32,000 nucleotides of DNA from Nonlabens ponticola (GCF_003966335.1 NZ_CP034549.1:330001-362000), one strand, 5' to 3'; shown: positions 145 to 27,288, numbered from the stretch's first letter. A program made the numbers and translations. Notes: generated from the letters alone by a model not told the origin.

Positions 145-179
145 GCTTTCGCGCCTGCCTATCGGCGAGGCAGGAAAGC
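145..179 (-). terminator. Imperfect nested hairpin just 3' of the PiT gene, built on a split copy of the GCTTTCGCGAAAGC palindrome; possible terminator
   Basis: GCTTTC(145-150) pairs with GAAAGC(174-179). The inner stem is cctgcct(154-160)/aggcagg(168-174). It lies 16 nt past the stop at 195-197. No clean T-run follows on the minus strand. Confidence 0.3.
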
Positions 180-194
180 GTAATCCTAAAACAC

Positions 195-2465
195 CTATTC
201 ACTCTCGCTATCCCGATCAAATCGATTGACATCGTACTCAGTGTAGTACTGCTCTGCAATCTGGATAACGGTATTGAGTAGATCACGAGTTTCAAGCAGC
301 AGTCCAAAGTAAAGCGTAGTGTTTTTAGGCGATTCGTCAGCGTCCTTGGTTCGTTTTACTTGCTTTTCGATTTTGTGATCCACCAGCACAAGAATCTCTC
401 GCTTTTTATGAATAACGGCCTCTAGTTTCCCGAACTCCTTAGCAGAGAAGATTTGTTGAACCTCGCCAAAAATATCTTGAAGTTGCAAGATGATTTCCTT
501 AAGGTCCTTAATCTGATTAAATTTTAGGCTCTTGTGATTGTTATTGATGTGATCTGCGCTTGCCTTAGAGATGTAATCCAGTGATTGCGATACATCTTGC
601 AAGTGACCCAAGACATTTATGTAGAATTTACTGGCACCGATGCTTGTCTCGTCCAGATTCTTGATAAAAAAGTAGATATTGTTGCGCAGGTTATCGATCT
701 CGCCAGCGAGTTTTTTACTCACCTTGCGGCTTTTTTTAAGACTACTTAAATCCTGCGTCATAAGACCTTCCAGTGTGTTTTGATACATGTGCTTACCGCG
801 TTTGAAAACGGTAGATACGATATCGCTACTTTCCTCTATAATACCTTGAATGGTATTGCTCTCGGCGCGTTTGAGCTCGTCTGTCGCCTTTTGTACATTT
901 TGAGATTTCTTGTGCATCAAGAAACTGCGTGTGATAAGAACGATAGCAAGCGCCACCAGACCAACAATAGCGTACATACCACCCATGTAAATGATGTAGG
1001 CAAATATGGCAGCGGCAGTAAAGGCGCTAAAAGCGGTAAAAAACCAACCACCTATTACGTTTAATACACCAGCGATGCGGTAAACGGCACTCTCGGTACC
1101 CCAAGCGCGGTCTGCGAGCGAGGTTCCCATGGCTACCATAAAAGTTACATAGGTTGTGGAAAGTGGCAATTTGTATGAGGTTGCAACAGATATAAGCACA
1201 CTGGCCACCATCAGATTGACCGACGCGCGCACATAATCAAATGCTGGTCTATCTGCATTTCTAGGAACTAAAGTAGATTCTGGAGCCTTCTCAAATTTTG
1301 AAGCGATATACTTATTGGCATTTGCCGGCATGATGCGCTTGATACCTTCGGCAGCGACGAGTGAGTAGCGTACTAGATATCTAGAAAGGGCATTCGCCTG
1401 AAAACGCTCTGTACCGCTGTCTTGACGAGCTAGATCGACTGATGTTTTTACAACGGCTTGAGCCTTTGAAGAGAACCAAAGCGTCAACACCATGATGATA
1501 CCAGCGACCATGAGCAGCCATTTCTGGCTAGGCAATTTGCCTGCGAGTGCGTCCATGGTAAAGTCTGCCGGTGATCCAGCGGCTTGCCACACATTATATG
1601 CGTCATAGGCACCTATGGGTACACCAATAAAGTTTACCAAGTCATTACCGGCAAAGGCCATCGCCAGGCCAAAGGTTCCCATGATAATGATCAACTTGTA
1701 GATATCCCATTTGATCACGTACACATAAATCAAACTGAAAATCGTCCAAAACACAAAGCCATAGGCCAACGTGGTGTAAACGTTTGAAGTGTATTCAAAA
1801 ATAAAGTTGAGTGCTCCTAGATCTGCACCCTTTAATCCTTTTACAAGGATGAAATAATACAAACTGGTGAGTGACAAACCTCCAAAAATCCCAGCCAAAA
1901 AAGCTGGACGCTTGCGGTAGTTAAACGTGAGCATAAGCCTAGACAAAAACTGCACAACGGCACCTATGGTAAAGGCCACCACTACCGATAGTAGAATGCC
2001 TGAAACAATCTCAATCGCAGTATCACTAGCGATATACTTGCCTAGATTAAGAAAAGTCTCTGTCGGGCTATTACTTATTTTAATCAAAGAAATACATACT
2101 GCGGCACCCAACAATTCAAAAACGATAGATACGGTAGTTGATGTAGGCAATCCCATACTATTAAAGAAGTCCAGCAATAGTACATCTGTAATCATGACCG
2201 CCATGAAAATGATCATGACATCGTCAAAGAAAAACTCGCTGGGATTGAAGATTCCCTTGCGCGCAACCTCCATCATACCGCTGCTGGAAAGCGCACCTAG
2301 CGCAATACCTATACTCGCGATTATCATGATGGTCTTAAAGCTTATCGCCTTAGATCCTATCGCGCTATTCAAGAAATTCACTGCATCGTTACTCACACCA
2401 ACTACAAGGTCTGTGATGGCTAGTCCTGCGAGTATCACTAGCATGTAAATGTAAACGTCTCCCAT
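195..2465 (-). CDS. Inorganic phosphate transporter, PiT (PHO4) family, long form with a C-terminal PhoU-like cytoplasmic domain
   Basis: 756-aa ORF. The N-terminal ~520 aa are polytopic membrane protein with PiT-like motifs (VSNDAVNFLNSAIG; AGNDLVNFIGVP). The C-terminal ~230 aa are helical and charged, resembling PhoU/NptA C-terminal domains. Confidence 0.8.
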   Translation of the reverse strand: MGDVYIYMLVILAGLAITDLVVGVSNDAVNFLNSAIGSKAISFKTIMIIASIGIALGALSSSGMMEVARKGIFNPSEFFFDDVMIIFMAVMITDVLLLDFFNSMGLPTSTTVSIVFELLGAAVCISLIKISNSPTETFLNLGKYIASDTAIEIVSGILLSVVVAFTIGAVVQFLSRLMLTFNYRKRPAFLAGIFGGLSLTSLYYFILVKGLKGADLGALNFIFEYTSNVYTTLAYGFVFWTIFSLIYVYVIKWDIYKLIIIMGTFGLAMAFAGNDLVNFIGVPIGAYDAYNVWQAAGSPADFTMDALAGKLPSQKWLLMVAGIIMVLTLWFSSKAQAVVKTSVDLARQDSGTERFQANALSRYLVRYSLVAAEGIKRIMPANANKYIASKFEKAPESTLVPRNADRPAFDYVRASVNLMVASVLISVATSYKLPLSTTYVTFMVAMGTSLADRAWGTESAVYRIAGVLNVIGGWFFTAFSAFTAAAIFAYIIYMGGMYAIVGLVALAIVLITRSFLMHKKSQNVQKATDELKRAESNTIQGIIEESSDIVSTVFKRGKHMYQNTLEGLMTQDLSSLKKSRKVSKKLAGEIDNLRNNIYFFIKNLDETSIGASKFYINVLGHLQDVSQSLDYISKASADHINNNHKSLKFNQIKDLKEIILQLQDIFGEVQQIFSAKEFGKLEAVIHKKREILVLVDHKIEKQVKRTKDADESPKNTTLYFGLLLETRDLLNTVIQIAEQYYTEYDVNRFDRDSESE

Positions 2466-2544
2466 TGCTTAAAATAGTTAAGCTGCAAAAGTGCTATATT
2501 CTGTTGGGTTGTACGTTATTAAAAGGTTATAAATATTAGGCGTT

Positions 2545-2577
2545 AGGATAGTTACGCTTTCGCGAAAGCGTAATCCT
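2545..2577. repeat. Extended hairpin element containing a perfect GCTTTCGCGAAAGC (2556-2569); 22-bp perfect palindrome TTACGCTTTCGCGAAAGCGTAA (2552-2573) plus AGGAT/ATCCT outer arms
   Basis: Read directly from the sequence. Intergenic, between the terminator of the lipoprotein gene and the PiT start codon. Confidence 0.95.
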
Positions 2578-2593
2578 ACAAACATTACTGCAT

Positions 2594-2624
2594 AAAAAAA
2601 GCTGCCTGGTAGCAGGCAGCTTTT
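2594..2624 (-). terminator. Rho-independent terminator (usable in both directions) downstream of the lipoprotein gene
   Basis: Stem gctgcctg(2601-2608)/caggcagc(2613-2620) with a 4-nt loop. Flanked by an A7 run (2594-2600) and T4 (2621-2624), so the minus strand reads hairpin followed by TTTTTTT. Confidence 0.8.
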
Positions 2625-2650
2625 GTAAAATATTTTGATATAAGATTAGA

Positions 2651-3865
2651 CTAGTTTCTTGTCCAGCCGTCGCCCCAAGAATCATAATCTGTTCCTGCAT
2701 CGTCATCATCGTCATCGTCATCATTCTCAATAACATCGTCTTGTGTAGGTGCTGGATTTGCAGATCCTACGCTTTCTTCAAAGCCATATGAATATTCAGT
2801 ATCTACATCGTCAAAAAGAACATTGGTAAAAAATAAATCAGAAGGAATGTTTGAACTTGTTCTAAAGGCTGACTCATCATCCTCTATCACAACACCACGA
2901 CCTGTGTTTGAAATCTCGATGTTGCTGAAGATACCACCTGATCCTGCACGTACTCTAAAGGCTCTACTATCATCATCATTACCAACTATAGTAACACGAT
3001 TGACTGTAGGACGAGATAATAGATTGACATCCTCAAGTGAGAAGTCTGTATTGAAGCCATCCATTTCAAAAGCACTGTCACCATCTGCAACATCAAGTTG
3101 CTCAACATAAACGTCTGTAAGGGTACCTCTATAACCTTCAGTCCAGTCGATGGAGTCATCTTCTGCTCCTACTACAGATAGGAAAGACACGTTTACAGTA
3201 CCGCCAAAAAATTCCACACCATCATCTGATCCTCTATAGACTTGCACGTGGTCAATGCTTGTTCCATTTCCTACAGCATATAGCGATAAGCCGTTAAGTT
3301 CTGCATTACCATCGATGGCACCACCAGCATACTCGATTCTCATGTAAGAGATATCTCCAGAGTCGTCTGACTCGTCATTGCCACCATAAGATAGTTGTCC
3401 TACTTCGCTCGTTGCAGTATCAGTCGATCCAGCTGCTGTAGAGTTGATAGGTGCTCTACCCAAAATAATAAGTCCACCCCAATCACCAGAATCTGGGTCA
3501 TTTGCAGCAGATGTAAGTACGATAGGATCATCTGCGGTACCTTGAGCATCGATTCTAGCGCCTTGCTGGATCGCGATGTAGGCATTCACACCTACTGGTA
3601 ATGCTCTCAAAGTAGTTCCTGCAGGAATGGTAAGTGTAGTACCATTACTCATGATTAATGGACCATTGATAATATAATCAACGTCCTCGTCCAACTCAAG
3701 GTCCTGTGTATATACACCACTCAAGTTGACTGCGTCTTCATTGCCGCCACCAGTTCCATTGCCGCCATTTGTGATGTTGATTGTAATATCAGACGTGTCG
3801 TCGCTTTCACAACTAGCAAAGATTGCTAATACAAAAAGCGCTATTAAAAATCTATTTGCTTTCAT
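2651..3865 (-). CDS. Putative cell-surface lipoprotein (beta-helix-like, Gly/Asp-rich) with a poly-Asp C-terminal tail; partner of the upstream TonB-dependent receptor
   Basis: 404-aa ORF. Lipoprotein signal MKANRFLIALFVLAIFASC. Repetitive GxxxxI/V strand-like segments. D8 run near the C-terminus. Starts 31 nt after the receptor stop on the same strand. Confidence 0.7.
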   Translation of the reverse strand: MKANRFLIALFVLAIFASCESDDTSDITINITNGGNGTGGGNEDAVNLSGVYTQDLELDEDVDYIINGPLIMSNGTTLTIPAGTTLRALPVGVNAYIAIQQGARIDAQGTADDPIVLTSAANDPDSGDWGGLIILGRAPINSTAAGSTDTATSEVGQLSYGGNDESDDSGDISYMRIEYAGGAIDGNAELNGLSLYAVGNGTSIDHVQVYRGSDDGVEFFGGTVNVSFLSVVGAEDDSIDWTEGYRGTLTDVYVEQLDVADGDSAFEMDGFNTDFSLEDVNLLSRPTVNRVTIVGNDDDSRAFRVRAGSGGIFSNIEISNTGRGVVIEDDESAFRTSSNIPSDLFFTNVLFDDVDTEYSYGFEESVGSANPAPTQDDVIENDDDDDDDDAGTDYDSWGDGWTRN

Positions 3866-3896
3866 GTTTTTTATTTTACTTGTTTATTGATTAAGA

Positions 3897-6698: not shown

Positions 6699-6851
6699 CT
6701 TGTACTTGTTTTCTCGTGCAAAATAACGACGTGATGCAGGGACAACAGGTTAATTTACCATTAGCATATTTCTGACCATTGTTAAGAAATGGTTACCCTA
6801 GGTAAACAGGTTGTTAGGATACAGGATACTATCTTGCATCAAACTTTATTC

Positions 6852-8183
6852 ATGAACTGGCCACAATTATTATCGCTTAAAAAATATGGTGACACCCAAC
6901 GTCGTGATCGACTCGAGCAGGACGAGTTGCGGTTAGGGTTTGAGGTAGATTATGATAGGATCATATTCTCACAAGAATTTCGCAGTTTGCAGGATAAGAC
7001 ACAGGTAATCCCGTTGAGCCAAACTGGTTTTGTGCATACTCGACTTACACATAGTCTAGAGGTGAGCGTGGTAGGCAGGTCGATAGGAAGAATGGCTGGG
7101 AAGAAAATACTCGAGCGCCATCCAGAATTGCTCAAGATGGGATATAAATTGCAAGATTTTGGCAGTATAGTCTGCGCTGCGGCTCTTGCACACGATATCG
7201 GGAATCCACCCTTTGGCCATAGTGGTGAGAAGTCGATAGGTAACTACTTTGCCAGTGGTAAGATGCAGATGGTGATGAGTCAGCTTTCGCGAAAGCAACA
7301 ACACGACCTACTGCATTTTGAGGGAAATGCTAATGGATACCGTTTATTAAATCTTGACAAGCCGGCTGCACCAGGTGGATTGAGATTGTCTTATGCAACG
7401 TTGGGTGCGTTCATAAAGTATCCAAAAGAGTCACTACCTGTAAAACCAACTGCTCATATCTCTCAGAAGAAATACGGTATTTTCCAATCAGACCTTGAAC
7501 ATTTTAAAGACGTGGCAAGCGAGTTGGGTCTGGACGACAACCTTGAGGAAACAGGTTTTTACAATAGGCATCCACTTGCCTATCTTGTTGAAGCCGCAGA
7601 TGATATATGTTACAGCATCATCGATTTTGAAGATGGTATCAACCTAGGCTGGATATCAGAGGATTATGCCCTGGAGCACTTGATAAATCTAGTACGCAGT
7701 AATATTAGGACTGATGTTTATTCCAATCTGGAGACAACCGCACAGCGATTGGGCTATTTGAGATCGCTAGCCATCAATAATCTGATAACGGACTGCGTGA
7801 ACATTTTTATGGATAATGAAGAGGCTATTCTTAAAGGGCAGTTTGCTCACGCACTTATGGATAGGTCGACCTATAAAGCTCAAGTAGATGATATTCTATC
7901 CATTACTGTCAAGAATGTTTACAAAAACACCGATGTTGTTCAAAAAGAGGTTTCTGGTTACAAGATATTAGGCGATATTCTTGACGCGATGGTGACTGCC
8001 ATGCTCAATGATTTGTCGGGTACGCTCACCACGTACGACAAATTAATCCTAGATCTTACAGCCGTAGAACTTAACGAGAGTGATGAGGTTTATGATAGAC
8101 TGCTTACTTGCTGTGCTTATGTCTCATCATTGACAGACTCAAAATCGATGGCTTTGTTCAAAGTTATTAATGGGAGTATCTAG
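6852..8183 (+). CDS. dgt: dGTPase-family deoxynucleoside triphosphate triphosphohydrolase (HD domain)
   Basis: HD motifs RLTHSLEVSVVGRSIG and AALAHDIGNPPFGHSGE. I prefer the ATG at 6852 (MNWPQLLS..) over the ORF-track start at 6789, by analogy with typical Dgt N-termini. Confidence 0.85.
   Translation: MNWPQLLSLKKYGDTQRRDRLEQDELRLGFEVDYDRIIFSQEFRSLQDKTQVIPLSQTGFVHTRLTHSLEVSVVGRSIGRMAGKKILERHPELLKMGYKLQDFGSIVCAAALAHDIGNPPFGHSGEKSIGNYFASGKMQMVMSQLSRKQQHDLLHFEGNANGYRLLNLDKPAAPGGLRLSYATLGAFIKYPKESLPVKPTAHISQKKYGIFQSDLEHFKDVASELGLDDNLEETGFYNRHPLAYLVEAADDICYSIIDFEDGINLGWISEDYALEHLINLVRSNIRTDVYSNLETTAQRLGYLRSLAINNLITDCVNIFMDNEEAILKGQFAHALMDRSTYKAQVDDILSITVKNVYKNTDVVQKEVSGYKILGDILDAMVTAMLNDLSGTLTTYDKLILDLTAVELNESDEVYDRLLTCCAYVSSLTDSKSMALFKVINGSI
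7283..7296. repeat. GCTTTCGCGAAAGC palindrome, perfect copy inside dgt (read as LSRK)
   Basis: Exact 14-mer read in the sequence. Codon phase gives caG CTT TCG CGA AAG Caa = QLSRKQ. Confidence 0.95.
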
Positions 8184-8242
8184 CCACTTTAAAGCAACCA
8201 GTATGAGGTTCTTATCGTATATTTAACACAAAAATTTTCTTG

Positions 8243-11095: not shown

Positions 11096-11098
11096 TTT

Positions 11099-12859
11099 TT
11101 ACAAACTTTCTATAAGTTTTAGCAAGGTCTCACGATCGATCCCTGCAATTTTATGCAAATCACTCGTGGGACCTTGTTCTATAAATGAATCTGGCAATCC
11201 TAGTTTGTGGATTTTTCCCGTATACGCTTTCGCGAAAGCATAATCACAAACAGCACTACCCAAACCACCTGCTTTAGTACCATCTTCCATCGTTATAACA
11301 TGATGGTGTTTATCAAATACCTCATCAAGCACAGTTGCATCCAGAGGTTTTAAAAATCGCATGTCTATATGGGTAACATTTAAATCTTCTGATTTGATCA
11401 ATTTCTGAACCATAACACCCAATGGTCCAATAGACAAAACAGCAATGTTCCTACCGTTAGAAAGCTGACGAGATGAACCTATCTCGATTTCTTTAAAATC
11501 CTGCTTCCATTCTATTATATGGCATCGACCACGCGGATAACGTATAGCGATAGGCAGTTCTAGACCTTTCTGTGCAGTAAACATCAGATTGCGTAAATCC
11601 ACAGCATCCATCGGTGCAGCGATAAGCAAATCTGGAATACAGTTTAAGTAGGCGAGATCAAAAGCACCATGATGCGTGGCACCATCTTGACCTACCAGTC
11701 CGGCGCGATCCAGGCAAAAAACTACGGGTAACTTTTGTAATGCTACATCGTGTATTACTTGGTCATAAGCTCGCTGTAAGAAAGTCGAATAAATGTTGCA
11801 AAAAGGAATTAATCCTTGTGTCGCCATACCAGCGGCAAGCGTCACCGCATGCTGCTCTGCAATGCCTACATCAAACGCTCGATCAGGATAGGTGTCCATC
11901 ATAATTTTCATGGAACTACCCGTAGGCATCGCAGGCGTGATTCCAATGATCTTATCATTTTGGTGGGCGAGCTCTAACAAAGTATGCCCAAATACATCCT
12001 GAAACTTAGGCGGTAATTCACTATCATCTCGCTGTGGTATATCACCAGTAACTTTATCAAATTTTCCAGGTGCGTGATAGCGCACTTGGTCGAGCTCTGC
12101 TTGTTTGAGGCCTTTACCTTTTGTAGTACGCACATGAAGTAATCGTGGCCCTTTCGAACTCTTCTGTCGCTTGAGTTCATTAATCAGTAATGGCAAGTCA
12201 TGTCCATCAATAGGACCAGAATAATCAAAATTGAGCGCTTCAAAAATATTATCGCGACCCGTTTCTTTACCAGATTTGGTTTTGGTGAGGTAATCCTTGA
12301 GCGCACCTACCGCAGGATCAATACCTATAGCATTATCGTTAAGTATAACTAGTAAATCAGCACCACTAACTCCAGCGTGATTCAAGGCTTCAAACGCCAT
12401 ACCGCTGGCGATACTGGCGTCGCCTATGACGGCGATATGTTTTCTAGCGTTGCTTTGTAAATTGCTGGCCATCGCCATACCCAAAGCTGCACTGATTGAT
12501 GTAGAACTATGACCTACGCCAAAAGTGTCATATTCACTTTCTGAACGTTTGGGAAAACCAGAGATACCATTTAACTCTCTATTGGTATGAAAAACATCAC
12601 GCCTACCCGTCAAAATCTTGTGACCATAAGCCTGGTGCCCTACGTCCCAAACCAGTAGATCATTTGGTGTGTCAAACACATAATGCAAGGCGATTGTCAA
12701 TTCAACCACACCTAAACTAGCGCCTAAATGACCTTCTTTAGTGGCTACAATATCAATAATGAACTCTCTTAATTCCTGTGCGATTTTGGGTAGTTCGCTT
12801 TCGCGAAAGCGTCTTAAATCCACAGGATCGTGAATGGTAGAAAGTAGGTCTCGTGCCAT
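11099..12859 (-). CDS. dxs: 1-deoxy-D-xylulose-5-phosphate synthase
   Basis: 586-aa ORF with Dxs hallmarks: GHLGASLGVVELTIALHYVF, WDVGHQAYGHKILTGRRD, GDASIASGMAFEALNHAG, IAEQHAVTLAAG, STFLQRAYDQVIHDVALQKLPV. Confidence 0.95.
   Translation of the reverse strand: MARDLLSTIHDPVDLRRFRESELPKIAQELREFIIDIVATKEGHLGASLGVVELTIALHYVFDTPNDLLVWDVGHQAYGHKILTGRRDVFHTNRELNGISGFPKRSESEYDTFGVGHSSTSISAALGMAMASNLQSNARKHIAVIGDASIASGMAFEALNHAGVSGADLLVILNDNAIGIDPAVGALKDYLTKTKSGKETGRDNIFEALNFDYSGPIDGHDLPLLINELKRQKSSKGPRLLHVRTTKGKGLKQAELDQVRYHAPGKFDKVTGDIPQRDDSELPPKFQDVFGHTLLELAHQNDKIIGITPAMPTGSSMKIMMDTYPDRAFDVGIAEQHAVTLAAGMATQGLIPFCNIYSTFLQRAYDQVIHDVALQKLPVVFCLDRAGLVGQDGATHHGAFDLAYLNCIPDLLIAAPMDAVDLRNLMFTAQKGLELPIAIRYPRGRCHIIEWKQDFKEIEIGSSRQLSNGRNIAVLSIGPLGVMVQKLIKSEDLNVTHIDMRFLKPLDATVLDEVFDKHHHVITMEDGTKAGGLGSAVCDYAFAKAYTGKIHKLGLPDSFIEQGPTSDLHKIAGIDRETLLKLIESL
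11226..11239. repeat. GCTTTCGCGAAAGC palindrome, perfect copy inside the dxs C-terminal region (read as AFAKA)
   Basis: Exact 14-mer, codon-aligned on the minus strand, giving YAFAKAY. Confidence 0.95.
12797..12810. repeat. GCTTTCGCGAAAGC palindrome, perfect copy inside the dxs N-terminal region (read as FRES)
   Basis: Exact 14-mer. Phase is cGC TTT CGC GAA AGC = RFRES. Confidence 0.95.
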
Positions 12860-13901: not shown

Positions 13902-15665
13902 TTATTCTGTGCTCCCGTCTACAGTAACTTTCAAGTTCAATTCTTCCAATTGTTCTTGATCTAGAGCCGATGGTGCATCGATCATCACATCACGACCATT
14001 GTTGTTTTTAGGGAAAGCGATAAAGTCTCTAATCGTTTCTTGGCCGCCTAGAATGGAAACCAATCTATCAAAACCAAAAGCTAAACCTGCGTGTGGTGGC
14101 GCGCCATATTCAAACGCGTCCATCAGGAAACCGAATTGCGCTCGAGCCTCTTCTGGCGTGAATCCTAAATGATCAAACATCAAAGCCTGCAACTTCTTGT
14201 CAAAAATTCGTACAGAACCGCCGCCTATCTCGTTACCATTCAATACAAGGTCATAGGCATTTGCGCGCACGTTACCTGGATCTGATTCTAATCTGTCAAT
14301 ATCTTCTGGTTTAGGCGATGTAAATGGATGGTGCATCGCGTGATAGCGCTGCGTATCCTCATCCCATTCCAACAGTGGGAAATCCACAACCCATAATGGT
14401 GCAAATTCATCGGCTTTGCGCAGTCCTAATCGTTCTGCCATTTCCATGCGCAAGGCGCTCAATTGTGCTCTGGTTTTATTGGCTGGTCCAGATAATACCG
14501 CGATTAAATCACCTGCTTTAGCGCTGGTGGCGTCTGCCCATTTAGCAAGATCTTCCTGATCATAGAATTTATCAACGCTAGATTTAAACGTACCGTCCTC
14601 GTTACATTTCACATACACCATTCCCATCGCACCTACTTGCGGTCTCTTGACCCAGTCGATGAGTTTATCGATTTCCTTGCGAGTCATGCTTGCACCACCT
14701 TGTATAGCGATTCCCACGACTAGTTCTGCTTCATTAAAGATTTTGAAGTCTTTAGCTTTCGCGAAAGCGGAAATATCACCGAACTCCATACCAAATCGAA
14801 TGTCTGGTTTGTCATTACCATACTTTTCCATCGCTTGCGCGTATGTCATCCTTGGAAAGTCTGCAACATCAACATTTTTCACCTTCTTGAGCAGGTGGCG
14901 CGTCATTTCTTCAAAGATGTTGAGCACGTCTTCCTGCTCTACAAATGACATCTCGCAGTCTATTTGTGTGAACTCTGGCTGGCGATCTGCTCGAAGATCT
15001 TCATCACGGAAACACTTGACAATCTGGAAATACTTATCCAGACCACCTACCATCAACAATTGTTTAAAGGTTTGTGGCGATTGTGGCAAGGCATAAAACT
15101 GACCTTCATTCATTCTAGAAGGCACGACAAAATCCCGAGCACCTTCTGGTGTGGATTTGATCAAGACAGGTGTTTCTACCTCAACAAAGTCTTTACCCGC
15201 TAGAAAATTGCGTACTTCCATCGCCACTCGAGAACGGAAAATCAAGTTCTCACGCACTGGATTGCGACGTATATCTAGATAACGGTATTTCATGCGCAAT
15301 TCCTCGCCGCCGTCTGTCTTGTCTTCAATGGTAAAAGGTGGTGTCTTGGACTCACTCAAGATCTTGAGTTCCTTGACTAATATCTCGATATCGCCTGTAG
15401 GCATTTTGGGATTCTTGGACTCACGCTCAATCACCTGACCAGTGACTTGGATCACAAACTCACGACCTAGTTGCTGTGCTTTTTCAAGCATGACTTTATC
15501 AGTACGCTCCTCATCAAAAATAAGCTGCGTCACACCATATCGATCGCGCAGATCGACCCATACCATAAAACCTTTATCTCTGGTTTTTTGAACCCATCCA
15601 GCAAGTGTTACTTTTTTATTGATATCGGCGGCGCGCAGGCTACCACAATCGTGCGATCTGTACAT
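13902..15665 (-). CDS. aspS: Aspartate--tRNA ligase
   Basis: 587-aa ORF. OB-fold N-terminus ([26 protein letters not shown]). Class II motifs [27 protein letters not shown] and GGGSVRI...GLAFGFDRL. Confidence 0.95.
14755..14768. repeat. GCTTTCGCGAAAGC palindrome, perfect copy inside aspS (read as AFAKA)
   Basis: Exact 14-mer, codon-aligned on the minus strand, giving SAFAKAKD. Confidence 0.95.
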
Positions 15666-17105: not shown

Positions 17106-17176
17106 CAGTAAAATTCCAAACCTCAAATCACAAATCTCAAAAACTTGTGATGCGCAATTTGCATGATAATAGTTAC

Positions 17177-17190
17177 GCTTTCGCGAAAGC
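17177..17190. repeat. GCTTTCGCGAAAGC palindrome, perfect intergenic copy; shares 23 nt (ATAGTTACGCTTTCGCGAAAGCG) with the copy at 2549-2570
   Basis: Read directly. Lies between the TetR-like stop and the ABC1 kinase start. Confidence 0.95.
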
Positions 17191-17245
17191 GGAAACATCA
17201 AAAACTTGAATCCAAGAAATGTAATTCTGGATTCTATCGAAAAAC

Positions 17246-18634: not shown

Positions 18635-18653
18635 ATAAATTCTTTTTGGGATT

Positions 18654-18938
18654 TTACCTAGAGTCGAAGACTCGCATGATAAATAGCGTGCTTCTTGAAA
18701 CACGGTAATTTATTTTGAGATATCTGAAAAACACCTTGCGATATTCAAATTGATGATTTTCAAACTGTGGATCTATAACACCTATTTTATGTATATCCTC
18801 ATTCATTGAAAGTGAACTAATAAAATCAAAAATGTCCACGATGATCCGTTTCGCTGTGACCTCGCCATATAGCTCTATGTAGAACTCAGATGTTTTTTCT
18901 AAATCTTTAAGTCCTCTTGACGAAAAACGATAATTCAT
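18654..18938 (-). CDS. Type II toxin, ParE/RelE superfamily
   Basis: 94 aa. N-terminal ..FSSRGLKDLEKTSEFY and a C-terminal ..IMRVFDSR signature typical of ParE-like toxins. The start overlaps the upstream small gene's stop (TAATG). Confidence 0.65.
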   Translation of the reverse strand: MNYRFSSRGLKDLEKTSEFYIELYGEVTAKRIIVDIFDFISSLSMNEDIHKIGVIDPQFENHQFEYRKVFFRYLKINYRVSRSTLFIMRVFDSR

Positions 18939-19159
18939 TACTTATCGAACCAGCTTAGCGCAATTTTTCTTGCTTCATCCAGCGTATAAACTCTACCTGC
19001 CTTGATATCCTCTTCAGCCTCTAGGATTCCAGCATCCATTTCTTCTTGGGTCTCACCAGCATAATAGTGCGAGGCAGCTTCTTGAACCAGGTTCAAAAAA
19101 CCATCATCAGCCTCGTCAATGAGCTTGTGTAGTTTGTCTTTAAGATCTTGATCTGACAT
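18938..19159 (-). CDS. Putative cognate antitoxin (small acidic addiction-module component)
   Basis: 73 aa, acidic, ending ..EAEEDIKAGRVYTLDEARKIA... Positioned immediately upstream of the toxin and translationally coupled to it. Confidence 0.55.
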   Translation of the reverse strand: MSDQDLKDKLHKLIDEADDGFLNLVQEAASHYYAGETQEEMDAGILEAEEDIKAGRVYTLDEARKIALSWFDK

Positions 19160-19179
19160 GATTTAAAGTTAGTGATTTT

Positions 19180-20463: not shown

Positions 20464-20497
20464 AGTCGGTTGGATTAAAATATTGTAGGTGTTAATT

Positions 20498-21631: not shown

Positions 21632-21718
21632 GTGTCGTCTATTGGAATCGTCAAAAATGACTGTATTACTGTAAAAATACGATATAATAAAGCCACCTGC
21701 CAACCCGTGCAAAAGTGC

Positions 21719-21726
21719 TATTTTTG
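21719..21726 (+). promoter_or_regulatory. Bacteroidota-type -7 promoter box TATTTTTG (TAnnTTTG) directly upstream of waaA
   Basis: Exact match to the TAnnTTTG consensus, 7 nt before the ATG at 21734. This would imply a leaderless or near-leaderless mRNA. Confidence 0.3.
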
Positions 21727-21733
21727 AAATTCT

Positions 21734-23008
21734 ATGCCTATATTAAAAAGTCTATATGATACGGGTTCCGCTTTCGCGAAAGCGTGCTTACCACTAGCTG
21801 GATTCTTCAACAAAAAGTTGCAGTTAGGAGCCAAAGGTCGGGAACAATCCTGGCACCTTCTTGACACCAAAGTCAAGAGCACCTTACCGAAAATCTGGGT
21901 GCACGTAGCGTCTTTAGGCGAGTATGAGCAAGTCGTTCCCGTGCTGGAAAAATTGAATCGCAAAGAATACCAAGTGATCCTGACATTTTTCTCGCCATCA
22001 GGCTATGAAAATAAAAAGGACACCGCACTGGCAGATGTAGTCACCTACTTGCCCATCGATGCTGTCTCAAATGTTTCTAAATTCATGGACCTGGTTGAGC
22101 CGTCGCTGGCGATCATGGTCAAGTATGAATTCTGGCCCAACTATTTGAACGCACTCAAGCGTCGTGAGGTCAAAACCATATTGGTGAGCGGTATTTTCAG
22201 AGAAAAAATGAGCTTTCACTGCTGGTACGGCAGCTGGATGACTAGCTCGCTAGAAGCTTTTGACCATTTTTTCCTGCAGAATGAATCTTCGTTGCGCGAA
22301 CTCAAAAAGCTAGGATTTGAAAATGCGAGCGTTTCTGGCGACACCAGATTTGACAGGGCTAGCCAATTGATCGAGAGAGATAATCGAATTGAGCTTATCG
22401 ACCAGTTTGTAGGCACAGAAAAGTGTCTGGTCATAGGCAGCAGCTGGCCGGCAGACATGCAGGTTCTCAAAGATTTCATCAAGAAAAACAAGCACGATCA
22501 AGCCTGCAAAATCATCATTGCGCCGCACGAGATCCATGCCGACTCGCTTAAAAATATCGAGAATAATATAGGTTTTAAACCAGTTTACTGGAGTGATATT
22601 AAAGAGGGCGCTGCGCAAGATCTAGAAAAAGATACTGTTCTTGTGGTCGATACCATTGGCTTACTTACTAAGATATACAGCTATGCAGACGTCGCCTATG
22701 TAGGCGGCGCCATGGGTAATACGGGTTTACATAATATCCTAGAAGCAGCAACCTATGGTGTACCTGTGATTATAGGTAAGAATTATGAAAAATATCCTGA
22801 AGCTGGAAAATTAGAAGATCTAGGAGGTTTGTTTTCAATCTCAACCGCAGACGAGTTCTCACATCAAATACATCGTTTACTGACTGATGATTATTTGCGT
22901 GAAAAGACTGGAATGATTTGTGGACACTGGATCAATAGTAATACAGGCGCGACGCGAGAGATTGTTACCCATTTAAAATCTATAGATGAAAAGCTGGTTA
23001 TTAATTAG
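21734..23008 (+). CDS. waaA: 3-deoxy-D-manno-octulosonic acid (Kdo) transferase
   Basis: 424 aa. WVHVASLGEYEQVVPVLEKL matches the WxHxxSxGE motif. The C-terminal part is a GT-B fold (VGGAMGNTGLHNILEAATYGVPV). Confidence 0.85.
   Translation: MPILKSLYDTGSAFAKACLPLAGFFNKKLQLGAKGREQSWHLLDTKVKSTLPKIWVHVASLGEYEQVVPVLEKLNRKEYQVILTFFSPSGYENKKDTALADVVTYLPIDAVSNVSKFMDLVEPSLAIMVKYEFWPNYLNALKRREVKTILVSGIFREKMSFHCWYGSWMTSSLEAFDHFFLQNESSLRELKKLGFENASVSGDTRFDRASQLIERDNRIELIDQFVGTEKCLVIGSSWPADMQVLKDFIKKNKHDQACKIIIAPHEIHADSLKNIENNIGFKPVYWSDIKEGAAQDLEKDTVLVVDTIGLLTKIYSYADVAYVGGAMGNTGLHNILEAATYGVPVIIGKNYEKYPEAGKLEDLGGLFSISTADEFSHQIHRLLTDDYLREKTGMICGHWINSNTGATREIVTHLKSIDEKLVIN
21770..21783. repeat. GCTTTCGCGAAAGC palindrome, perfect copy inside waaA codons 13-17 (read as AFAKA)
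   Basis: Exact 14-mer, offset 36 nt from the ATG, giving SAFAKACL. Confidence 0.95.
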
Positions 23009-23957
23009 TTTCCTATTAAGCTTATTTACCATGCAGGCACAGGTCTATCAACTTGTAGATGGTGATAGCAATGAGCCACTCGCATTTGCTACCATAAGTT
23101 TTAATGATGGTCGAGGCACTTTTGCAGATGATGACGGAAAGTTTCAGTTTTCGCGAAAGCGGTATCCAGGAATTGATTCTCTTACTATAAGTTCTCTAGG
23201 ATATAAAACTATATCAATTGCGACTGCAGATTTAGTACCTGTGTTAAAACTGTATCCGGATACTGATGAACTTGACGCCGTAGTGGTAAGAGCTAAACTA
23301 GACGGTAAATTCAAAGAAAAAGAAATTGATGCTATTGAGCATGATGATTACTTCAATAGCTGGTTGCCAACAGTAGAATCTGAGATTGCGGTCAAGTTTG
23401 AGCGATCAGCTAGTCAACCTACCCAGATCAAAAGTATTTTACTACCCGTAATTGTTGAAGAACAATCTGGTCGTAGAAAGGGAAAGGTGCGCAAATTCAG
23501 TACATTGTTTAGATTACAATTTTATGCCGTAAATGTTGACGGATCACCAACTGACAAAAGCAATTATCCAGATCATACCTTCATCATCAATCAGGAAACT
23601 GAAGATGTTTACAACGTTGATGTAGAAGAGTACGGCATCCAGATACCTAAAAACGGACTTTTTGCCTCCATTCAGGTTTTAGGCTACACTTATCCAGATG
23701 GAAAACTCATTGATGCTAAAAAATATCGCGAGATAAAGACAAGAACAGGATTTGAAAAAGTTTCCACTACCTATAGACCGCTGTTACCGTTTACTGATGA
23801 AGTGGATGCACCATTAACATGGGTTAGACGTATTTTCTTCAATAATAAAACCTGGCAAAAATTTGATCTATCCTACAATCCTAATAGCAAATTAGTGAGA
23901 TCTGGTCATGATAGTTACGGTATGGGCGCTGTTTTAAAAGTCTATAAACAAGACTAA
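22986..23957 (+). CDS. Hypothetical secreted protein with an N-terminal carboxypeptidase-regulatory-like domain
   Basis: 323 aa. Signal peptide ..FTMQAQ. YQLVDGDSNEPLAFATISFNDGRGTFADDDGKFQF resembles CarboxypepD_reg. Overlaps the waaA 3' end by 23 nt. Confidence 0.6.
   Translation: MKSWLLISFLLSLFTMQAQVYQLVDGDSNEPLAFATISFNDGRGTFADDDGKFQFSRKRYPGIDSLTISSLGYKTISIATADLVPVLKLYPDTDELDAVVVRAKLDGKFKEKEIDAIEHDDYFNSWLPTVESEIAVKFERSASQPTQIKSILLPVIVEEQSGRRKGKVRKFSTLFRLQFYAVNVDGSPTDKSNYPDHTFIINQETEDVYNVDVEEYGIQIPKNGLFASIQVLGYTYPDGKLIDAKKYREIKTRTGFEKVSTTYRPLLPFTDEVDAPLTWVRRIFFNNKTWQKFDLSYNPNSKLVRSGHDSYGMGAVLKVYKQD
23147..23160. repeat. Degenerate (13/14) copy GTTTTCGCGAAAGC of the palindrome, inside the 22986 ORF (read as FSRK)
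   Basis: One mismatch at position 2 (C to T), read directly. Confidence 0.9.
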
Positions 23958-24616
23958 ACGGTTACAGCTTTATTCAGGTATTCTCTAAAGGGCAGCATCT
24001 CTTTATAGATCTCAACACATTTATCTTGAAAGTTTGATTGCATGATTTCTTTCTGAGTTACATCATGTTTCACGGCAAAACTCTTGCGACGCAGCAGCTC
24101 GATGTGTTTATGATCCTGGGAATAACCTTTAGGTGATGTTTTAAGCTTGTCATCATCAGTCATGAGACCTCCAAAGGTTTCTTTAAACGACTTTTTACTG
24201 ATTATTTTCTTGAGTTCCTCGCCGTTATAATCGATGGCGTCCCTTATAGAATCAAGAACTTCCTTTTTAGGCTTATAGAATCCACCAGCAATAAAACTAC
24301 CATTAGTCCCGATTTGAATATAAAAATCACCATAATTGCTACTCTTGTCAATGTCCAGTCCAGCACCAAAGTGGTCTTTATAAACGGGCTTGTTAGGATG
24401 GTATAATAGGTTGTTATTGATTCGATTGACGGCTTTTTTTCCCTCGGTTTTATGATAGGTATCGTGCACTTTAGCCAGCTTCTCATCCAACTCATTAAGC
24501 CAGCTCACAAACCAGTCTTTTACATCATGATATTCATCCCGATGCTCGTCCATCCAGTCCTTACTATTATTATTTTGTAACTCTCTAAGGAACGTGAACA
24601 TCTTATTGAAACTCAT
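23954..24616 (-). CDS. DUF2461 (TIGR02453)-family protein
   Basis: 220 aa. The N-terminus FTFLRELQNNNSKDWMDEHRDEY is characteristic of the family as I recall it. Confidence 0.6.
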   Translation of the reverse strand: MSFNKMFTFLRELQNNNSKDWMDEHRDEYHDVKDWFVSWLNELDEKLAKVHDTYHKTEGKKAVNRINNNLLYHPNKPVYKDHFGAGLDIDKSSNYGDFYIQIGTNGSFIAGGFYKPKKEVLDSIRDAIDYNGEELKKIISKKSFKETFGGLMTDDDKLKTSPKGYSQDHKHIELLRRKSFAVKHDVTQKEIMQSNFQDKCVEIYKEMLPFREYLNKAVTV

Positions 24617-24703
24617 AGCTAATCTTTTATTTAAAGGTAAAACCCACAGTTATAGCGTCTAAAAAATTAATAATACATTAGCAATAGGATTATCAGTTTA
24701 AAA

Positions 24704-24711
24704 TACATTTG
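24704..24711 (+). promoter_or_regulatory. Candidate -7 promoter box TACATTTG (TAnnTTTG) for the first acidic lipoprotein gene
   Basis: Exact consensus match, 25 nt upstream of the ATG at 24736. Confidence 0.35.
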
Positions 24712-24735
24712 TTCCCTTAATTAAAATTTTCAACC

Positions 24736-24966
24736 ATGAAAAAAGTAACCCTAGCAATTGCCGTTTTATTCATTGCAGCTACTGCATTTACCTCATGTCG
24801 CGAGACTGAAAAAGAAACTGAGACTATCGTAAGAGAAGTTGAGGTAGAAACTCAAGATGCTGCTGAAGAATCTGAAGGTATCCTAGAAAGAGCTGGAAGC
24901 GCAGTAGACGCTGAAGTCAACAAGGAGATCGATGAAGAAATCGATGAAATAGGCGACGATAACTAG
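24736..24966 (+). CDS. Small acidic lipoprotein, paralog 1
   Basis: 76 aa. Lipobox ..AFTSC. Mature part is ~45% Asp/Glu. Shares the SCR(E/D)E..VEVE motif with the two downstream genes. Confidence 0.7.
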   Translation: MKKVTLAIAVLFIAATAFTSCRETEKETETIVREVEVETQDAAEESEGILERAGSAVDAEVNKEIDEEIDEIGDDN

Positions 24967-24986
24967 TCGAGTATTAAATTATTTCA

Positions 24987-25015
24987 AGGCCATTCCATCA
25001 GGAATGGCCTTTTTG
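24987..25015 (+). terminator. Rho-independent terminator after acidic lipoprotein 1
   Basis: Stem ggccattcc(24988-24996)/ggaatggcc(25001-25009), loop atca, then TTTTT. Confidence 0.8.
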
Positions 25016-25082
25016 TTTACTTAAGCTTTGCATTTACTGGGATATTTATATATTTACCTCTTAATCATTTAAACAACCAACA

Positions 25083-25340
25083 ATGAAAAAATTATCATTA
25101 CTATTTGTAGCATTATTTACGGTATCAATGTTCACCACTTCATGTAGAGAAGAGTCTGAAAGCGTAGAGGTAGAAATGGAAGAAGTAGCAGACGATATGG
25201 AGGATGCTGGTGAAGACATGGAGGACGCTGCCGAGGACATGGGCAACGACATGGAAGATGCCGGTGAAGACATGGAAAATGAAATGGAAGATACTGATGT
25301 TGAGGTAGAGGTAGAAGACGAAGATGGTGACAACGACTAA
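25083..25340 (+). CDS. Small acidic Met-rich lipoprotein, paralog 2 (DMEDAGE heptad repeats)
   Basis: 85 aa. Lipobox ..FTTSC. The mature part is almost entirely D/E/M/A/G. Candidate TTTG (25027-25030) and TATATTTA (25049-25056) promoter boxes lie upstream. Confidence 0.7.
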   Translation: MKKLSLLFVALFTVSMFTTSCREESESVEVEMEEVADDMEDAGEDMEDAAEDMGNDMEDAGEDMENEMEDTDVEVEVEDEDGDND

Positions 25341-25352
25341 TTAATCCTTAAG

Positions 25353-25520
25353 ATGAAAAAGATATTTTTAAGTTTGATGATCATGGCAATCACAGCTCCT
25401 GCTCTAGTGAGCTGTCGTGATGAGAAGGAAGTTGAAGTAGAAACCCTAGCGCCAGATGCTGAGGATAGTGATGACGATGAAAGTTATGACACTAATCCTA
25501 CATCAAACGATCCTGATTGA
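25353..25520 (+). CDS. Small acidic lipoprotein, paralog 3 (below the ORF-track length cutoff)
   Basis: My own translation: MKKIFLSLMIMAITAPALVSCRDEKEVEVETLAPDAEDSDDDESYDTNPTSNDPD (55 aa). Same lipobox/VEVE architecture. Starts 12 nt after paralog 2. Confidence 0.6.
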   Translation: MKKIFLSLMIMAITAPALVSCRDEKEVEVETLAPDAEDSDDDESYDTNPTSNDPD

Positions 25521-25547
25521 TCACAAACTCAAAGAATATAATTATAG

Positions 25548-25575
25548 AAGGAACCTATATCAGGTTCCTTTTTTT
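25548..25575. terminator. Rho-independent terminator after the acidic lipoprotein cluster (overlaps the 3' end of the convergent LexA-like gene)
   Basis: Stem aaggaacct(25548-25556)/aggttcctt(25562-25570), a 5-nt loop, and a T-run to 25575. Confidence 0.7.
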
Positions 25576-26330
25576 ATTCCTGCTATCTCATCACGCAGGC
25601 TATCAAGCCCTTTCTTGAGCGAGAGCATCGCTTCTTGACCTTCATGAACATCAAGATCAAAACTTAGTTTTGAATTTACTTCCCATAATTCCTTAATGTC
25701 AACGATAGGCTGCTCGATGACCGGATAATCTTTATTGAGCGAGATAAGACTAACCTGATCTGAGCCGTCTTGCTTGACCAGCTTTTTCACCACTACCGTA
25801 TCGTCTGTCACTACAACATGAATACGCGATTGATTGGCTTGTCTTATACTCTCAACAGCTTTTGCCATAACCCATTCTTCTGGTTGTAGCACGGGCAACA
25901 TACTATCACCTTTGACCTGAAAAGCCCTGTAACTACCTTCCTTGTATTGAGGTAGCGGTATATTAAAAGCTGGCAGTTCCTGATACCAGTCTGTATCCTG
26001 TACGTTGCTCGCATATCCAGCACTTGCCTTGATGGGTACCATGATCATGTTCTCACGGTCTGTGCTGTCCATCGTAATGATTTTTGGCGCTGTATTAGGA
26101 CTTGTCTCAAGCTCTTTATTATAGCTGTTACCGTATAGCCATAGCGGATTTATATTGAATTGACGTAGCAATTCTGACACAATTTTGCCGGTAATCTTCT
26201 TTTTACCACGTTCAATATCTGCAGTTGTGCTACCTGCGTCAAGCATTGATGCAAACTCACTTTGTGTTTTACCTTGATCTTCTCTTACTTGTTTAAAGCG
26301 TCGCGCCTCTATAGAAATGTCTTGTGCCAT
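25560..26330 (-). CDS. XRE/CI-type HTH + S24 peptidase repressor (non-canonical LexA-like)
   Basis: 256 aa. N-terminal HTH (KQVREDQGKTQSEFASMLDAGSTTADIERGKKK). Ala-Gly cleavage-site context VPIKASAGYA. Catalytic Ser in VKGDSMLP and Lys in VVVKKL. A ~45-aa C-terminal extension follows. Confidence 0.8.
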   Translation of the reverse strand: MAQDISIEARRFKQVREDQGKTQSEFASMLDAGSTTADIERGKKKITGKIVSELLRQFNINPLWLYGNSYNKELETSPNTAPKIITMDSTDRENMIMVPIKASAGYASNVQDTDWYQELPAFNIPLPQYKEGSYRAFQVKGDSMLPVLQPEEWVMAKAVESIRQANQSRIHVVVTDDTVVVKKLVKQDGSDQVSLISLNKDYPVIEQPIVDIKELWEVNSKLSFDLDVHEGQEAMLSLKKGLDSLRDEIAGIKKGT

Positions 26331-26350
26331 GTGACAAATATAGTAGTATT

Positions 26351-26447
26351 AGGAACATTTCCAACTTTAACAGTGGATTATTTCCTAATTATAGGATTTA
26401 TTCCATATATTTGAATCAATAATCGCAATAGTCTTAGGATTATTTCC
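26351..26447. promoter_or_regulatory. Four iterated ~12-nt motifs (AGGAwnATTTCC-like) in the divergent LexA-like/SRAP promoter region; candidate operators
   Basis: aggaacatttcc at 26351-26362, ggattatttcc at 26375-26385, aggatttattcc at 26393-26404 and aggattatttcc at 26436-26447. Copies 2 and 3 together create TCCTA-N4-TAGGA (26383-26396). Confidence 0.45.
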
Positions 26448-26460
26448 AAATATTAAAGTT

Positions 26461-27288
26461 ATGTGTGGTAGAGCTTCAGTAATTACGCCTCAAGCATTGT
26501 TAGAGAGACGTTTTGATTCCGCTTTCGCGAAAGCGGGATTATTAAAAGAAAACATTAACACAAGTGTAGGTGAAGAAATTCCTGTTATAACTATGCAGGA
26601 TCCTAAGCAGATTCAATTGTTCACTTGGGGTTTCACACCGCACTGGGCACATAAACAGACTTATCTCATAAACGCCCGTGCAGAAGGTGGGCGCAACGAA
26701 GAAAATGATCGTAATTATAAAGGCACAATGGGCATATTTAACAAGCCTATGTTTAGACATGCAATAAGATCGCAACGTTGTATCATATTAGTAGATGCGA
26801 TTATTGAAGGGCCTAAACAGCAAAAGCTTAACAAGCCGTATGTTATTTATCCTAATCGTGATCGTGGACCATTTGCCATTGCTGGAATTTATGACACATG
26901 GCGACACCCATTGTCTGGTGAATTGCATCACACAGTAGCGATGATAACTACAGCTGGCAATCGCATTACCAGCGCGATAGGACATCATAGGGCACCGCTT
27001 ATTCTTAAAAAAAGCGATGAGAAAAAATGGTTAGACCCATCACTTGATGTAAAGGAAATTAGCTCCATGATGAAGCCATTTAATGACAACGGTTTTAATG
27101 CTTACCCTATATCATCTAGTATAAAGCAACCCAGTGCAAATGGACTGGAGTTACTCAAGCCTATAGGTGATAAATTGGTAAAAGATTATGACCGTGGCTT
27201 CTATGACAGGTATAAATACATGAGCGATCTACCTAGTACTATAAAAGAAGAGCGATTAGTAGAAGGTGATCAATTTGTTTTATTCTAA
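26461..27288 (+). CDS. SOS response-associated peptidase (SRAP; YedK/HMCES family) with an extended C-terminus
   Basis: 275 aa. Invariant N-terminal MCGR (catalytic Cys2). SRAP-like core (FTWGFTPHW, NARAE, FAIAGIYD, MITT.AN, IGHHRAPLIL). The extra ~50 aa end in QFVLF. Confidence 0.85.
   Translation: MCGRASVITPQALLERRFDSAFAKAGLLKENINTSVGEEIPVITMQDPKQIQLFTWGFTPHWAHKQTYLINARAEGGRNEENDRNYKGTMGIFNKPMFRHAIRSQRCIILVDAIIEGPKQQKLNKPYVIYPNRDRGPFAIAGIYDTWRHPLSGELHHTVAMITTAGNRITSAIGHHRAPLILKKSDEKKWLDPSLDVKEISSMMKPFNDNGFNAYPISSSIKQPSANGLELLKPIGDKLVKDYDRGFYDRYKYMSDLPSTIKEERLVEGDQFVLF
26521..26534. repeat. GCTTTCGCGAAAGC palindrome, perfect copy inside the SRAP gene codons 21-25 (read as AFAKA)
   Basis: Exact 14-mer, offset 60 nt from the ATG, giving SAFAKAGL. 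Confidence 0.95.

Follow-up and report, generated by a model that had tools for sequence, protein, structure and literature searches.

The stretch of Nonlabens ponticola DNA analysed here (GCF_003966335.1, NZ_CP034549.1:330001-362000; 32,000 nucleotides in all, referred to below as the window) carries genes for a PHO4-family transporter, an HD-domain (dGTPase-like) protein, Dxs, AspS, TetR-family and ABC1-kinase proteins, a Kdo transferase, a CarbopepD_reg-like protein and an SOS-response-associated peptidase (SRAP). Within and between these genes lies a repeated 14-bp perfect palindrome, GCTTTCGCGAAAGC, which is the subject of this study and is called the word hereafter. Eight exact copies, one copy with a single mismatch and one copy split by an insert are present, as listed below with positions in the window; no strand is assigned to them.

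145-179, split copy, GCTTTCGCG-CCTGCCTATCGGCGAGGCAGG-AAAGC: the exact 14-mer with a 21-bp GC-rich hairpin insert (154-174) between its positions 9 and 10, located 16 nt beyond the stop codon that ends the PHO4-family transporter gene
2556-2569, exact copy, in the form of the 16-mer (C...G): in intergenic DNA, 91 bp before the start of the PHO4-family gene
7283-7296, exact copy: HD-domain (dGTPase-like) gene, read as LSRK through the rare codons CTT TCG CGA AAG
11226-11239, exact copy: dxs, amino acids 541-545 (AFAKA), in a variable C-terminal loop
12797-12810, exact copy: dxs, amino acids 17-22 (RFRESE), in a variable N-terminal segment
14755-14768, exact copy: aspS, amino acids 300-304 (AFAKA)
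17177-17190, exact copy, 16-mer: spacer between the TetR-family gene and the ABC1-kinase gene
21770-21783, exact copy: Kdo-transferase (waaA-like) gene, amino acids 13-17 (AFAKA)
23147-23160, one-mismatch (13/14) copy, GTTTTCGCGAAAGC: CarbopepD_reg-like gene (QFSRKR)
26521-26534, exact copy: SRAP gene, amino acids 21-25 (AFAKA)

All of these sites had been reported by an earlier reading of the window made without database searches (the sequence-only reading), and each was recovered where that reading had placed it, including the 13/14 copy and the split copy, in which 21 bp break an exact 14-mer after position 9. Its assignment of six exact copies to genes (HD-domain, dxs twice, aspS, Kdo transferase and SRAP) and two to spacers also held, as did its statement that the coding copies use all three reading phases, which yield AFAKA, (R)FRES and LSRK. 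The 14-bp palindrome itself stood as described, but the unit proved larger: the core is usually the 16-mer CGCTTTCGCGAAAGCG, again a perfect palindrome, and carries a flank signature of approximately 18 nt on each side. In dinucleotide-preserving shuffles of the window, matches at up to two mismatches averaged 0.09 and none of 100 shuffles reached 9, and Markov models of order 1-3, with the copies masked first, gave an expectation for the word of 1e-4 to 1e-5.

The Dxs and PHO4-family transporter sequences of the window are 100% identical to N. ponticola proteins, whose genome record spans 2.87 Mb. The distribution of the word was examined in a Nonlabens set consisting of the window and the loci around dxs or the PHO4-family gene of ten further genomes (YIK11, N. 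dokdonensis, Hel1_33_55, N. marinus, N. spongiae, N. ulvanivorans, N. xiamenensis, N. agnitus, N. tegetincola, and MB-3u-79). Every further locus contained 3-8 exact copies per approximately 22 kb, so that all 11 genomes sampled bear the word, and the set as a whole, including the window, contained 63 exact copies in approximately 251 kb, or one per approximately 4 kb. Extrapolated from this locus density, a genome would hold about 700 copies. Outside the genus, no copy was found in 80 dxs loci of other Bacteroidota (approximately 1.4 Mb, with about 25 other Flavobacteriaceae), which were among the matches listed in a dxs-based contig scan (best identity 68%, none from Nonlabens), or in one Leeuwenhoekiella locus. 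The word thus appears to be specific to Nonlabens, being present in every genome of the genus sampled and in no sampled locus of other Flavobacteriaceae genera. Other lineage-specific palindromes were also looked for in these 81 outgroup loci and none was found; no other GC-containing palindromic 10-mer reached three copies in any of them.

Scanning metagenomes with the 16-mer gave at least 120 loci, at least 104 of which had a GC content of 31-45%. Among the matches listed, these 104 low-GC loci gave 170 distinct copies, and many contigs had 2-4. The few contigs that overlapped reference loci were 70-83% identical to Nonlabens proteins. Because the word is enriched in the metagenome loci as well, the enrichment is not restricted to one syntenic neighbourhood. 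The sequence-only reading had named a local fluke and contamination or an assembly artefact as ways in which its description might fail. The word occurs at similar density in the loci of 11 Nonlabens genomes and in at least 100 independent low-GC metagenome contigs, which disposes of the first, and its copies stand at orthologous positions in independently sequenced species, which disposes of the second.

Phage genomes gave a divided picture. The Nonlabens siphovirus P12024S (L327, JQ823122, 35.7 kb) contained no copy even at two mismatches, while about nine are predicted from the host density. A scan of IMG/VR returned matches that were mostly single and unrelated or due to chance, or that represented one site conserved in unrelated phages; several low-GC phage-like contigs (L141 and L177 among them), however, carried 2-3 copies with canonical flanks per 11-14 kb, and L141 has genes for a head protease and an endolysin. 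Therefore, the word marks the chromosome and at least some resident elements, and not the virion-propagated genome of P12024S.

Individual copies are strongly conserved among species. The word was exact in both genomes for 237 of 264 alignable ordered pairs (90%), while 4.6% is predicted from the 75% identity of the flanking columns. In particular, the copy at 7283 (the dgt site) was the same DNA in all 11 Nonlabens genomes, that at 14755 in aspS was identical in every genome covering the site, and that at 21770 was kept in YIK11, Hel1_33_55, and N. marinus. The two spacer copies are conserved too: the copy at 2556, where the local flanks GGAT.GTTAC and GTAATCC lengthen the palindrome, was exact in Hel1_33_55 and N. 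agnitus and had one mismatch in YIK11, and the copy at 17177 was intact in Hel1_33_55 and N. marinus and interrupted by a 20-bp mini-insert in YIK11. YIK11 also has an exact copy in its homologous CarbopepD_reg gene (L081:340), the correspondence with the copy at 23147 being at the level of the gene and not of an aligned site.

This conservation acts on DNA. Only 6-8% of the codons for invariant residues were the same in all eight species of the codon alignments, and pairwise codon identity was 0.38-0.56; synonymous sites between these Nonlabens species are near saturation. Despite this turnover, the 14-mer was identical in eight of eight species in dgt, in six of eight and five of eight at the two dxs sites, and in five of five in aspS. 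From codon usage, the probability of obtaining the DNA word given the peptide is 0.01 for AFAK, 0.02 for FRES, and 0.0007 for LSRK, which requires the rare codons TCG and CGA. The mismatch spectrum is also sharp: exact, one-mismatch and two-mismatch copies numbered 46:6:1 in the loci of the first eight genomes and 171:18:21 among the matches listed in the metagenome loci. We rejected the half-site GCGAAAGC, a very stable DNA mini-hairpin, as the true unit because it is almost never seen outside the full word.

The two dxs sites show what stands at an orthologous position when the word is absent. At 12797, the word is present in the six species mentioned above and also in N. agnitus, and the two word-free species have the same length with other residues and codons. 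At 11226, the sequence in N. spongiae and N. xiamenensis is equal in length but unrelated, and N. ulvanivorans has a one-mismatch intermediate, GCTTCCGCGAAAGC (ASAKA). The word-free dxs sequences are 6-7 positions off the word. RFRESE and AFAKA in Dxs are confined to species that have the DNA word, and these segments are otherwise variable and without indels. Thus, in the two cases that can be compared, the coding word replaces existing sequence without a change of length, and the third way in which the sequence-only reading might have failed, namely that every copy belongs to a larger inserted mobile element, disagrees with the equal gene and protein lengths in orthologs without the word. Beside the AFAKA copy, N. 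dokdonensis Dxs has a six-residue insertion, AAGFNK, directly before it (L082:11621-11650) and N. marinus Dxs has a two-residue insertion just behind it, so that indels are clustered beside this copy.

Taken together, the conservation, codon-usage and mismatch data exclude, for the coding copies, chance and contamination as well as a selected peptide and a conventional inserted element. Selection or molecular drive keeps the word exact in opposition to codon preference, and the word dictates AFAKA, RFRES or LSRK in tolerant parts of proteins. We conclude that it is very probably a word maintained at the DNA level, and neither a product of chance nor a conventional mobile element. The description of a HIP1-like or uptake-sequence-like, hyper-abundant palindrome that invades coding DNA was thereby upheld, none of the three objections having proved true.

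The genomic context bears on a role of the word as RNA or protein, be it a hairpin that terminates or attenuates transcription, a motif of small RNAs or a peptide motif under selection. Between 63% and 66% of the copies lie in open reading frames (ORFs), in all three frames. Among the matches listed in the metagenome set, 107 copies are coding (58 AFAKA, 28 RFRES, and 21 LSRK) and 63 are intergenic. Spacers are enriched approximately 3.7-fold per base, and coding copies are skewed to the first fifth of genes. Intergenic copies are distributed over tandem, convergent and divergent spacers as 30:9:10, compared with 214:56:62 for spacers overall. With these unbiased proportions, a terminator or promoter role was rejected, and with about two-thirds of the copies in genes, the earlier view that the word is not simply an intergenic repetitive extragenic palindromic (REP) sequence or a terminator is sustained. 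An RNA or protein role could draw on the 9-bp hairpin that the 22-mer forms as single-stranded DNA (-7.3 kcal/mol) and on the recurrence of only three peptides among the coding copies. However, the hairpin of the 14-mer in single-stranded DNA is weak (-2.1 kcal/mol, z = -0.2), no T-run follows the word, there is no bias to gene ends or convergent spacers, and no Rfam family overlaps any copy. Moreover, the copies face either way with respect to genes and fall in three frames, and the three peptides are unrelated and encoded by one fixed, often rare, codon set. The frame and strand distribution effectively refutes such a role, which we regard as extremely improbable.

Some neighbouring features of the window may be recorded here. 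An intrinsic-terminator-like hairpin, AAAAAAAGCTGCCTGGTAGCAGGCAGCTTTTGT, lies at 2594-2630 downstream of a 404-aa gene, 35 nt from the copy at 2556; as a separate terminator-like hairpin is present, the word itself is not the terminator there. A gene for a protein with a LexA-like helix-turn-helix and an S24 peptidase domain (25560-26330, minus strand) is divergent to the word-bearing SRAP gene (26461-27288, plus strand), and a tRNA-Asn (GTT) gene at 29267-29341 (minus strand) is the sole RNA gene found in the window.

The site extends well beyond the core. The base before the word is C, and the base after it G, in 85-92% of half-sites, which is partly due to ascertainment in the metagenome set but is also seen in the genome loci, and the wider consensus is TTnC-GCTTTCGCGAAAGC-GnAA. 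On each strand, from -2 to about -19, C falls to 8-11% against a background of 20%, and T and G are enriched; T peaks in the 5' flank at -3/-4, -7, -10, and -13, that is, in 3-nt steps, and by about -20 to -26 the composition is again that of the background. Examples of this signature in the window are found at 2537-2588 and 17158-17209. Because the pattern is alike on coding and template strands, in all three coding phases and in spacers, it is a property of the site and not of codon structure. TTAC-like tetranucleotides precede many copies. The unit is thus approximately 50 bp long and consists of two equivalent half-sites, in which a 16-bp core is accompanied by a C-poor, T/G-rich stretch of about 18 nt 5' of it on each strand.

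The flanks of different copies are alike in composition and not in sequence, and the complementarity of the two arms within a copy is not above that between copies (z = 1.5). A long hairpin or cruciform was rejected because within-copy arm complementarity did not exceed that of shuffled partners and the 14-mer hairpin is weak. Since the two arms are not mutually complementary, the arrangement looks like a duplex site with two symmetric halves and not like a long hairpin, and the simplest reading would be a duplex site recognized by a symmetric, probably dimeric, protein. One individual copy, that of N. marinus in the TetR-ABC1 spacer (L085:5826-5867), lies inside a perfect 42-bp palindrome, TGAATAGTTATTTC-core-GAAATAACTATTCA, while the arms on average are not complementary.

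Four copies are interrupted by a homologous GC-rich hairpin of approximately 20 bp (consensus about CCTGCCTGTCGGCAGACAGG) at one and the same bond, between GCTTTCGCG and AAAGC. These interrupted copies are as follows.

Window, 145-179
YIK11, L081:5843-5876
YIK11, L081:~3000-3040 (~3010)
Metagenome, L257:~12085-12125 (~12090)

For three of the four, the intact word stands at the orthologous spot in other species: in N. agnitus, the spacer that follows the PHO4-family gene (L329:12294), in the TetR-ABC1 spacer in three species, and in the spacer after a DegT-family gene in two species. The mini-insert was looked for outside the word and was not found. Because homologous inserts occupy the same off-centre bond in these four copies, something would be expected to open or cut the core there, and the sequences suggest that the core can be cut or opened at this position. 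Applied to both strands by symmetry, the bond would correspond to a 4-nt CGCG 3' stagger. The mini-insert resembles a tiny site-specific nested element, or else the mark left by cleavage at this bond. N. dokdonensis may have a larger insertion in one of its copies (L082:3773-3828), where GCTTTC and CGAAAGC arms with canonical outer flanks enclose a segment of 42-43 nt with two small hairpins.

These interruptions bring up the question of whether the word itself is a miniature mobile or self-propagating palindrome, spread by insertion or short-patch gene conversion in the manner of REP sequences with their REP-associated tyrosine transposase (RAYT), of miniature inverted-repeat transposable elements (MITEs), or of a homing site for a nuclease or HUH enzyme. 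REP sequences and their mosaics (bacterial interspersed mosaic elements, BIMEs) are likewise short palindromic repeats with a conserved tetranucleotide ahead of them, as the TTAC-like tetranucleotides are here, and serve as targets for other small elements; the nested hairpin recalls the insertion of IS1397 or IS621 into REP sequences, and the very small nested and dispersed repeats of cyanobacteria described by Elhai and colleagues in 2008 are said to nest similarly. The intergenic enrichment, the near absence of degenerate copies, the copies in prophage-like contigs, and an insert at one core position, if read as processing of the site by a DNA-cutting or strand-transfer activity, would all agree with a self-propagating palindrome. 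However, REP sequences are extragenic and gained by insertion, whereas most Nonlabens copies are intragenic and many are conserved genus-wide at orthologous positions; such fixed positions across near-saturated species indicate old, maintained copies and not recent insertions, and the word-free orthologs are equal in length at both dxs sites. Flanks that share composition but not sequence further argue that no common template longer than about 22 bp was copied. No RAYT or transposase gene was seen among the annotated genes of the fetched loci, to which this observation is limited. We judge propagation of this kind to be quite improbable.

A second way to maintain an exact word would be methylation and repair, in which an orphan methyltransferase acting on CGCG or TCGCGA, combined with biased short-patch repair, creates and preserves it; such an origin was once proposed for HIP1. 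Both CGCG and TCGCGA lie inside the core, and elsewhere than in the word TCGCGA shows no avoidance (13 observed, 4.9 expected), which agrees with this explanation and speaks against restriction pressure on TCGCGA, a possibility that we accordingly rejected. HIP1, too, is embedded in methyltransferase sites (PMC4390886). However, the literature search yielded no Nonlabens methylome data. An exact 16-bp core with flanks of about 18 nt far exceeds any known methyltransferase or Vsr-type site, the 6-7 differences in word-free sequences are poorly bridged by a repair bias acting on single mismatches, and conservation across saturated synonymous sites points to selection at each site. A methylation and repair word is hence improbable as well, although slightly less so than a self-propagating palindrome.

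The duplex symmetry of the site is also compatible with an array to which a dimeric protein binds in order to organise the nucleoid or to segregate chromosomes, each site being kept by selection, as for Noc and its binding sites (NBS), SlmA and its binding sites (SBS), ParB-parS, MatP-matS or a chromosome-structure role of HIP1. The perfect 16-bp palindrome, the symmetric flanks and the non-complementary arms suggest a site read by a dimer, the sites are conserved at orthologous positions, and the lytic phage lacks the word; Xu et al. argued for a chromosome-structure role of HIP1 from similar evidence (PMC5861425). The 16- and 14-bp palindromes of parS and NBS share with the word the perfect symmetry xxTTTC...GAAAxx, a frequent location inside genes and recognition by a dimer. 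However, when the word is compared directly with the consensus sequences of parS (tGTTTCACGTGAAACa) and NBS (ATTTCCCGGGAAAT), only 6 of 16 positions match parS, and the inner spacer between TTTC and GAAA is 2 bp in the word instead of 4 bp. Known arrays, moreover, consist of tens of degenerate sites (parS and NBS number 1-70 copies per genome), whereas the extrapolated 700 or so sites here are near-exact, and unrelated neighbourhoods contain them at a density of about one per 4 kb. Nor would an array account for the repeated interruption of the core at one fixed position. A nucleoid array is therefore possible but rather unlikely, and it is the strongest of the alternatives.

Comparison with known iterated words led us to a different reading. 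The uptake signal sequences (USS) of Pasteurellaceae and the DNA uptake sequences (DUS) of Neisseriaceae are, like the word, specific sequences of more than 10 nt, over-represented thousands-fold or more, with a clade-specific dialect. Their copies are present in genes in all frames and are enriched in spacers, which matches the Nonlabens pattern; positions are shared by related species, peptides are imposed in tolerant protein segments, and weaker preferences surround the core. HIP1 (GCGATCGC) of cyanobacteria is likewise a hyper-abundant palindrome in coding and non-coding DNA with CG-rich potential methyltransferase sites, as the CGCG and TCGCGA of the Nonlabens core are. It differs in sequence, host (Nonlabens being a member of Flavobacteriaceae) and size, with 8-10 bp against a 14-16-bp core with a flank signature of about 50 bp, and it is phylum-wide at about one per kb or denser, whereas the Nonlabens word is limited to a genus at one per 4 kb. 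As with the Nonlabens word, conservation of HIP1 at orthologous sites, both within and between ORFs, exceeds the prediction from codon usage; for HIP1 it has been taken to imply selection (PMC5861425). The function of HIP1, long unknown, is now tied to natural transformation, the efficiency of which it is reported to raise; roles as an uptake signal and as a Chi-like site have both been suggested (bioRxiv 10.1101/2024.09.10.611283; 10.64898/2026.06.24.733823). Chi sites of RecBCD/AddAB resemble the word in density (about one per 4-5 kb), in GT-rich sequence 5' of the core on whichever strand would form the 3' tail, and in that they would be a mark of self missing from a lytic phage. They are asymmetric, 5-8 nt long, skewed with respect to the replication strand and modestly over-represented, whereas the Nonlabens word is a 16-bp palindrome. 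These three, Chi, uptake sequences and HIP1, constitute the classes of hyper-abundant oligomers distinguished by Elhai (PMC4390886).

A long, exact, over-represented word confined to one clade, present in all frames, enriched in spacers, conserved at orthologous positions and surrounded by flank preferences favours a self-DNA signal, and by analogy this combination appears to be known otherwise only for uptake sequences, HIP1 and, more loosely, Chi. We therefore tentatively favour the reading of the word as a mark of self DNA, specific to the genus, that serves in DNA uptake or in recombination; in our estimation it stands ahead of a nucleoid array, then of a methylation and repair word, and then of a self-propagating palindrome. 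Under this reading, the duplex site would be bound by a symmetric, probably dimeric, protein and would mark self DNA for an uptake or recombination pathway, as USS and DUS do, as Chi does for RecBCD and as is proposed for HIP1. If the core were cut or opened at the CGCG stagger, either side would end in a GT-rich 3' strand, and one may speculate that the GT-rich 5' arms and the fixed cut position fit a mechanism that yields 3' single strands ending at the core. In a more specific form, the word could belong to a self-recognition system not known so far, in which a symmetric protein reads the composite site of about 50 bp and cuts or opens the CGCG stagger, and GT-rich 3' strands initiate uptake or RecA-dependent recombination bidirectionally. 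The word would then be a palindromic hybrid of an uptake sequence and Chi, with the hairpin mini-element of about 20 bp as a parasite of the cut site. We consider this form distinctly unlikely. Within the same order as Nonlabens, Riemerella columbina is naturally competent and prefers its own DNA (PMC7965970).

Several points weigh against a self-DNA signal. No evidence for natural transformability of Nonlabens was found, and no paper in the literature searched connects the two. Known USS and DUS are asymmetric words of 9-12 nt at about one per kb, with inverted pairs only in terminators, whereas the word of Nonlabens is perfectly palindromic, measures 16 bp and is found about once in 4 kb, a density approximately four times lower, and it occurs in the phylum Bacteroidota. 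The mismatch spectrum, with exact and one-mismatch copies at about 8-10:1, is very sharp, sharper than that of the Haemophilus USS, and recognition by a nuclease or recombinase would fit it too. Copies with canonical flanks in prophage-like contigs indicate that the word is not strictly core-chromosomal. Finally, all genome loci come from one syntenic neighbourhood, so that independence is provided by the metagenome loci and by the non-syntenic halves of four genome loci.

The literature searched contained no paper with the 14-mer, and the 13 papers with its 10-bp core were unrelated; nothing was found on such a word in Flavobacteriia, or on Nonlabens in connection with such palindromes, competence or methylomes. 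The word thus seems to be an iterated sequence of the HIP1 or USS kind that is palindromic, 16 bp long and set in a grammar of about 50 bp, and that is undescribed in Bacteroidota. The function of HIP1 is still being worked out after 30 years, and the Nonlabens word would offer a system comparable to Chi, uptake sequences and HIP1 in a different phylum, with a long exact palindrome, a measurable flank grammar and clear phylogenetic limits. Because its hosts are cultured and have complete genomes, it makes testable what keeps words over-represented thousands-fold in place, even in essential genes. The word could also serve to mark Nonlabens DNA in metagenomes and, if the reading as an uptake or recombination site is true, could help to make marine Flavobacteriia genetically tractable.

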